DNA of 64,000 nt from Octopus vulgaris (lineage: Eukaryota). A model generated the notes under the pieces. That model searched no databases and was not told the origin of the DNA. It saw only the letters and a program-made list of their open reading frames with translations. The stretch is taken from the NCBI GenBank assembly GCA_951406725.2, contig OX597840.1, positions 40,052,001 to 40,116,000 of the forward strand, written 5' to 3'. Positions 36,277 to 36,434 of the stretch are shown here, in pieces; within the stretch, counting starts at the first letter, position 1; the number at the start of each line of letters is the position of its first letter. A program made the position numbers and the translations under genes.

Positions 36277-36434
36277 CTTTATTTAAAAGCAGCAGAAATT
36301 CAACAAAAGCTGTTACTCGGAGTTTCACGTTCCCGTTCGTCGGACAGTTTTGTTAAAAAAAAACTGTCCGACGAACGGGAACGTGAAACTCCGAGTAACA
36401 GGTTTTGTTGAATTTCTACTGCTTGTAAATAAAG
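36277..36434. ncRNA. Palindrome (75-bp arms) encoding two divergent type I hammerhead ribozymes (36364-36401 +, 36310-36347 -)
   Basis: Both arms read CUGU-CCGACGA-ACG-ggaa-CGU-GAA-ACUC-c-GAGU-A-ACAG. All three stems pair and the triplet is GUA. The element spans ~36271-36510 between TA tracts. Confidence 0.78.

Follow-up and report, generated by a model that had tools for sequence, protein, structure and literature searches.

The window analysed here is a 64,000-nt stretch of the Octopus vulgaris genome (assembly GCA_951406725.2, contig OX597840.1, positions 40,052,001 to 40,116,000). A 229-bp insertion at positions 36277..36505 appears to derive from a Hydra-clade Penelope-like element (PLE) of an older subfamily with a CCGACGA ribozyme core; it comprises two 3' ends of the element, both truncated on the 5' side and arranged head-to-head. 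The left arm (36277..36358, minus strand) is untailed: it terminates at the first of two fixed 3' ends (E1; AATAAAG, at +66 from core position C3), starts roughly 15 nt before the core, and is 92% identical to the 3' end of a long copy, L141. The right arm (36360..36434 as far as E1, plus strand) begins about 8 nt upstream of the core, passes E1 and continues into a 71-bp tail (36435..36505, plus strand) that finishes at the second fixed 3' end (E2, at +137), which makes the insertion asymmetric. The inversion junction (36352..36363) lies within a run of A, where the exact break is ambiguous by a few bases; similar A-run junctions are found in L012, L023, L045 and L050. The insertion is flanked by (TA)5 on the left (36267..36276) and by (TA)8 on the right (36506..36521). 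The original prediction, made from the sequence of the window alone, described a head-to-head palindrome with 75-bp arms and an identical 38-nt ribozyme portion in both. The palindrome is real, with 72 of the 75 positions paired in an inverted-repeat comparison of 36277-36351 and 36360-36434, but the boundaries assigned to it (36277..36434) are too short, as they omit the 71 bp by which the right arm extends further. All three mismatches (36286, 36293 and 36309) indeed fall outside the 38-nt motif; this placement has a probability of 0.115 by chance, so that it shows nothing and gives no sign of selection.

Each arm contains a minimal type I hammerhead motif with its 3' end pointing outward, at 36310..36347 on the minus strand (predicted cut after 36314) and at 36364..36401 on the plus strand (predicted cut after 36397). 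The recognizable parts are stem I (CTGT/ACAG), stem II (ACG/CGT), GAAA, stem III, which in the plus-strand motif is palindromic (ACTC-C-GAGT), and the GUA site. The core, CCGACGA, departs from the CUGANGA consensus by the change U4C; the topology and every core base other than U4 are present. The 34-nt core has 427 exact copies in the genome and its reversed control has none, a difference far beyond chance. The claim of an intact hammerhead on each strand is thus correct for the type I layout but not for the core, and no match in the window reaches the Rfam gathering score. The further suggestion that the long hairpin would compete with ribozyme folding holds in silico. The full element folds as a single hairpin (-125.7 and -127.1 kcal/mol for the two strands), the hammerhead stem probabilities in the full palindrome are 0 on either strand, and forcing these stems costs 76-77 kcal/mol. 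For the isolated 38-mer, the hammerhead fold lies 2.8 kcal/mol above the minimum and another fold is preferred; the minimum of the dimer co-fold (-25.4) is not a hammerhead dimer, and the dimer that could be scored is only partial (-15.6). The hairpin of a read-through RNA is accordingly predicted to exclude the hammerhead fold, which would make both ribozyme motifs passengers.

The parent of the insertion was traced by walking upstream through copies that retain more upstream sequence. In L141, the hammerhead closes a 1.3-kb 3' UTR downstream of an endonuclease frame with a CxCx5C motif, and the protein matches that of a young sister subfamily at 76-77% amino acid identity in the endonuclease. 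The window's own subfamily contains endonuclease and reverse transcriptase (RT) fragments, with no intact full-length frame among the long copies examined, and therefore the clade motifs were read on the sister subfamily. There, a single frame of up to 727 codons combines the RT (YRDD) with a C-terminal GIY-YIG-type endonuclease region and contains RWK, DKT, CxCx5C, CxxC and CxH; in L180, these are RWK at 53, DKT at 129 without DKG, CNCKNESSC at 578, CRLC at 683 and CRH at 711. By inspection, the GIY-YIG core has no internal cysteine and there is no CCHH motif. According to the relevant sections of Craig et al. (PMC8557442), RWK, DKT, CxCx5C, CxxC and CxH are defining features of the Hydra clade. 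The parent frame gave no match in sequence searches of Pfam and PDB, so that the assignment rests on these motifs and on by-eye likeness to the published Hydra rows; judged by these, the parent is a Hydra-clade PLE. Positions 36364-36509 of the window are 89% identical to the junction between the pLTR and the next unit in the tandem copy L180, which has an intact frame; hence the tail is the beginning of the following unit's 5' UTR. The features of insertions by EN+ PLEs, namely 5' truncation, a tandem pLTR, an inverted 5' copy and a one-sided tail, are all present among the copies. Exact ribozyme cores of the young sister subfamily (L175-L182, e.g., L180:4379-6559) number 3674. It has many frames of 727 codons, and its copies, which occur both in tandem and inverted, are about 98-99% alike. 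The core of its hammerhead is canonical, although stem II has an A-A mismatch at its base.

The original prediction treated the palindrome as a discrete bidirectional cassette and offered two origins for it, an integration scar or a tiny non-autonomous ribozyme-hairpin element, to be told apart by collecting copies across the genome: fixed inversion points would speak for a mobile unit and variable ones for scars. The copies sampled are the first 100 listed of the 427 exact matches to the 34-nt core, collapsed to 90 loci. An inverted partner is present at 64 of these and 26 are solo, and two whole hammerheads are kept at only 30. The 63 mapped junctions fall into 54 variants, possibly an overcount, since A/T runs leave the BLAST ends imprecise by a few bases. 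TA is found within 30 bases of 82/90 right ends and 77/90 left ends. A search with the whole palindrome shows one long and one short arm at all 23 loci examined; it was left out of the junction counts, except for six loci also among the first 100 exact matches, because such a query selects like junctions. Two of the loci, L087 and L088, look like a single duplicated insertion. The window itself holds a second, older copy (5713..5997), in which a 200-bp untailed minus-strand arm faces a plus-strand arm that is almost tail only; its junction differs from that of the copy at 36277 and there is no palindrome. In the sister subfamily, 30 head-to-head pairs, spaced by 43 to 5428 bp, occur among the first 100 matches listed. 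The inversion points are thus variable, which argues for an integration scar of a Penelope-type element; together with the minority of loci that keep two hammerheads, it argues against a discrete cassette, and the fixed internal structure of SINE- or MITE-like elements is absent given the many junction variants and the partnerless loci.

The ends of the arms are much more regular than the junctions. One arm ends at E1 and the other at E2 in 55 of the 56 classifiable old pairs (8 of 64 are unclassifiable) and in all 30 classifiable adjacent pairs of the young subfamily (2 of 32 are unclassifiable), so that the combination of one tailed and one untailed arm accounts for 85 of 86 pairs. The longer arm can be either of the two. 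In a few pairs (6/63 old and 3/32 young), the arms do not overlap, and here the tailed arm consists of tail sequence only. Such pairs cannot arise from the fold-back of a single cDNA but can be produced by two primings. The insertion is most probably, at a rough probability of 0.88, a pair of 5'-truncated Hydra-clade PLE 3' ends joined head-to-head within a TA repeat, likely as the result of two primings. Under the proposed mechanism, the RT-endonuclease would nick both target strands in the TA repeat and prime two separate cDNAs, one from E1 and one from E2. These cDNAs would extend 5'-ward across the hammerhead and for the most part halt on its upstream side at a distance of no more than about 20 nt, probably at the 5' terminus of the RNA itself, and their ends would then be joined via short microhomologies such as A/T runs, CTAG or the extended stem I. 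The portions of the study of the anole enzyme that bear on this point (PMC11167929) report that both strands are nicked and extended, with two start sites corresponding to the tail bounds, but in vitro no strand difference in the start site, which does not reproduce the rule of one start site of each kind.

The main competitor of the two-priming reading is fold-back self-priming as proposed by Arkhipova et al. (2013), in which one strand folds onto itself, either at a short palindrome or at the extended stem I, and then serves as its own template to yield the second arm. The relevant part of that paper (PMC3846280) presents this as the best reading of such palindromes, and many junctions in the present sample are centred on the short palindromes CTAG, AATT or TGGCCA or on stem I complementarity; the junction (-14, +34), in particular, has 11 overlapping bases in 4 of 63 cases. 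Fold-back cannot, however, make the nine non-overlapping pairs and does not account for the fact that the longer arm is tailed in some pairs and untailed in others. As the source of the insertion it is therefore unlikely, but it may be the route by which some junctions are sealed. A still less probable alternative is that the palindrome, at least where junctions recur, is a discrete non-autonomous mini-element which is transcribed and copied again by the Hydra enzyme. Short palindromes do form a distinct class: 13 of the 30 young head-to-head pairs have spacings of 43-75 bp and none falls at 76-481 bp, and six of these 13 share a spacing of exactly 58, centred on a CTAG palindrome. Furthermore, pLTRs are able to mobilise sequence in trans, according to the section of PMC3846280 on this subject. 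Nevertheless, the 13 arms from seven CTAG-centred loci have no set of changes common to the loci; most differ from an intact copy by 0-2 unshared changes, and in the one palindrome where four changes are mirrored in both arms, one of them recurs in one other locus. In addition, the junction in the window is one among many, and solo arms halt at the same place as paired ones (17/26), so that the pile-up needs no palindrome. We read the recurrent CTAG junction as a hotspot rather than a replicating unit, and the mini-element suggested in the original prediction finds no support, given the small number of loci with two hammerheads and the recurrence of a junction without shared private changes. 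In L195:668-902, a palindrome of the young subfamily, both arms carry the same four changes, U4C among them, which implies that both derive from one variant template.

The least probable of the alternatives, which we consider very improbable, is that the locus is used by the host, either as a bidirectional RNA switch or as a source of siRNA or edited double-stranded RNA. A near-perfect 75-bp hairpin would be expected to form if the locus were transcribed, and the pertinent section of PMC3846280 reports that Penelope copies yield small RNAs in rotifer and Drosophila. The surroundings and the state of the arms argue otherwise: by inspection, no host exon is recognised among the window frames of at least 130 codons, the locus is surrounded by other repeats, three changes in the arms are unmirrored and indicate drift, and the ribozyme core departs from the canonical one. 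Contigs from four runs guessed to be RNA, which are not on record as such, show no splice joint near the ribozyme at the parent junction; contigs compared with the window give only short multi-copy pieces, with none bridging unique flank and palindrome and with no recurrent letter changes. These contig results weigh neither for nor against expression.

The two-priming reading leaves a separate question, namely why so many arms stop just upstream of the ribozyme. The stop lies no more than 24 nt upstream of the core in 29 of the 30 old partner arms extending as far as the core, in 79 of the 90 anchors and in the solo arms counted above. Among 96 young arms (of 100 listed matches), 45 stop within 19 nt upstream and only four at 20-56 nt. 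A set of 67 matches represents long copies that continue across a tandem junction; of the 30 that were read, 24 reach the core and none stops just upstream of it (0/24; Fisher p = 2.7e-6). We infer that the stop represents run-off at the 5' end of the RNA after priming on 5'-proximal sites. The A of an initiator-like motif lies at -17 (young) or -16 (old) relative to the core, which is a weak sign given how common the motif is. A transcript start about 17 nt upstream would predict full-length copies beginning there; none of 30 does, which counts against run-off. Snap-back of the cDNA on the extended stem I is a rival cause of the stop. Several other candidates were rejected. A splice acceptor would be expected to use the AG located 11-12 nt upstream in the young subfamily, but many stubs include this AG and a few bases beyond; the predicted ribozyme cut lies 29 nt downstream of C3 and thus on the wrong side; and TA microhomology as the sole cause is at odds with the young ATATATAT run 22-31 nt upstream, at which only 2 of 96 arms stop. 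Taken together as a general scheme, in which the enzyme always uses a different start site on each nicked strand and often primes 5'-proximal sites, and both cDNAs run off at an RNA 5' end located some 17 nt before the hammerhead, in a manner resembling strong-stop synthesis, these ideas are tentative and, in our estimate, fall somewhat short of an even chance. Neither the rule of one tailed and one untailed arm, nor the non-overlapping pairs, nor the upstream stop was found in print, in a literature that was mostly open-access, with supplements in part. If true, the two-priming rules would explain the abundance of tiny ribozyme palindromes and displace self-priming as their main source.

The altered core is not a peculiarity of the locus. 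In the window's subfamily, the 427 exact copies with the CCGACGA core compare to 28 with U4, and U4C is present in 27 of 29 motifs from copies picked by their upstream sequence; on these sequence counts, U4C is fixed throughout the subfamily. The sister subfamily has the canonical CUGAUGA core. In 26 old copies, which were chosen by an indel-free motif match and thus carry a selection bias, non-CpG substitutions affect 16/722 positions of the hammerhead (2.2%) compared to 68/1726 in the flanks (3.9%; p = 0.038); when CpG sites are included, the contrast almost disappears (3.6% in the hammerhead versus 4.1-4.3% in the flanks). In the relevant parts of earlier studies, U4C reduces activity in vitro yet permits viroid infectivity (PMC3088659), minimal PLE hammerheads cleave poorly, and as dimers (PMC4209133), and dead hammerhead mutants remain able to insert in vitro (PMC11167929).

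The palindrome near 56.5 kb (56430-56725) contains two complete motifs and one tailed end and likewise has the U4C core, which is present in 3053 exact copies of its family compared to 84 with U4. By the sequence of its copies L317-L319, which have an intact 717-codon Hydra-type frame and 2.58-kb tandem units, this is a different family of the same Hydra clade, so that U4C is fixed in two separate families. If the two-priming scheme is true, the weakened U4C hammerhead would be no bar to amplification into thousands of copies per family. In the 56.5-kb family, TGGCCA, located immediately upstream of the core, often forms the centre of the stubs, and at 5360-5601 there is an older copy of this family with a canonical CTGAAGA core and a disturbed inverted partner. 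The palindrome near 61.0 kb (61021-61370) has the tailed/untailed layout, but only its minus-strand arm holds the 5' half of the core, as the plus-strand arm begins inside stem II. It belongs to a third hammerhead-bearing family with a long stem II loop and about 1400 candidates at first look. The proposed recurrence of the layout in two unrelated families is accordingly valid in part: both arms are complete at 56.5 kb, although the family there is of the same clade and not unrelated, and the full core is present in one arm only at 61.0 kb. A relaxed scan identifies a further hammerhead-like motif at 4216 on the minus strand, with a CTGATGA core, a long loop II and a palindromic stem III. Two short palindromes, at 24436-24546 and 61406-61492, have arms of 53 and 42 bp, respectively, and TA-rich ends, with no hammerhead core detected; they are probably further Penelope-type stubs. 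A 273-codon frame at 29055-29876 on the minus strand is one that we take to resemble the C-terminal part of a non-LTR retrotransposon RT.

The layout of the insertion has precedents in the portions of the literature that concern such elements. With the Hydra clade as described in PMC8557442, the window's family shares RWK, DKT, CxCx5C, CxxC, CxH, (TA)n targets, a hammerhead near the 3' end and a palindromic stem III. Among the rows of File S2 of that paper, Hydra-2_aJap agrees with the motif in the window in its stem III and cut base, and Hydra-2_aMil in its stem I. The same source describes inverted 5'-truncated copies with a one-sided tail, lists Penelope-13_HM as having an inverted copy truncated at the 5' end and a hammerhead on each strand, and includes an octopus family, Hydra-1_Obim, from which the window's family differs, by eye, in the hammerhead and the N-terminus. 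Differences from the published Hydra clade are the unit of about 3.36 kb with a long 3' UTR, the tail of 71 bp compared to 30-40, and the CCGACGA core, whereas 26 of 26 Hydra rows in File S2 start with ctga. Head-to-head Penelope palindromes are described in PMC3846280. In the relevant passages, Arkhipova et al. (2013; PMC3846280), Schostak et al. (2008; PMC2377424) and Goubert et al. (2022; PMC8969392) share with the present case the head-to-head layout, the junction palindromes and the tail at one end; they deal with single copies and favor self-priming, whereas here about 95 pairs are counted and two primings are favored. PAc, the anole Poseidon element (Frangieh et al. 2024; PMC11167929), is similar in the two start sites that bound the tail, the nicking and extension of both strands, the AT-rich target and insertion without hammerhead cleavage; it belongs to another clade, start sites were not seen to be paired between strands in vitro, and the portions of that paper considered here describe no stop just upstream of the hammerhead.

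The minimal PLE hammerheads of Cervera and De la Pena (2014; PMC4209133) share the type I layout, short stems and a palindromic stem III suited to dimers. The portions of that paper considered here report hammerhead pairs 100-700 bp apart on opposite strands in Schistosoma and an inactive tested monomer, and the core variant named in them is U3-A8, unlike the U4C fixed in the window's subfamily. Animal non-LTR retrozymes, as presented in the pertinent part of bioRxiv 10.64898/2026.07.22.740005, are likewise non-coding, have a type I hammerhead and are PLE-related, but consist of direct tandem repeats, whereas the element in the window is an inverted pair that matches the 3' end of its own parent; a non-LTR retrozyme was rejected for the locus, which has an inverted pair and no tandem unit.

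Altogether, the feature at 36277..36505 is real but ordinary, namely a Hydra-clade Penelope insertion that is truncated and inverted, with a layout already in print. The locus itself is minor, being one among hundreds to thousands of Penelope stubs; the interest lies in the family-level rules and in the recurrent U4C core. The value of these observations is as data on the open question of how Penelope-like elements produce tandem and inverted insertions. Given that the sister subfamily combines thousands of near-identical insertions with intact frames, the pairing rule, the stop ahead of the ribozyme and what the hammerhead contributes, canonical or U4C, all become directly testable.
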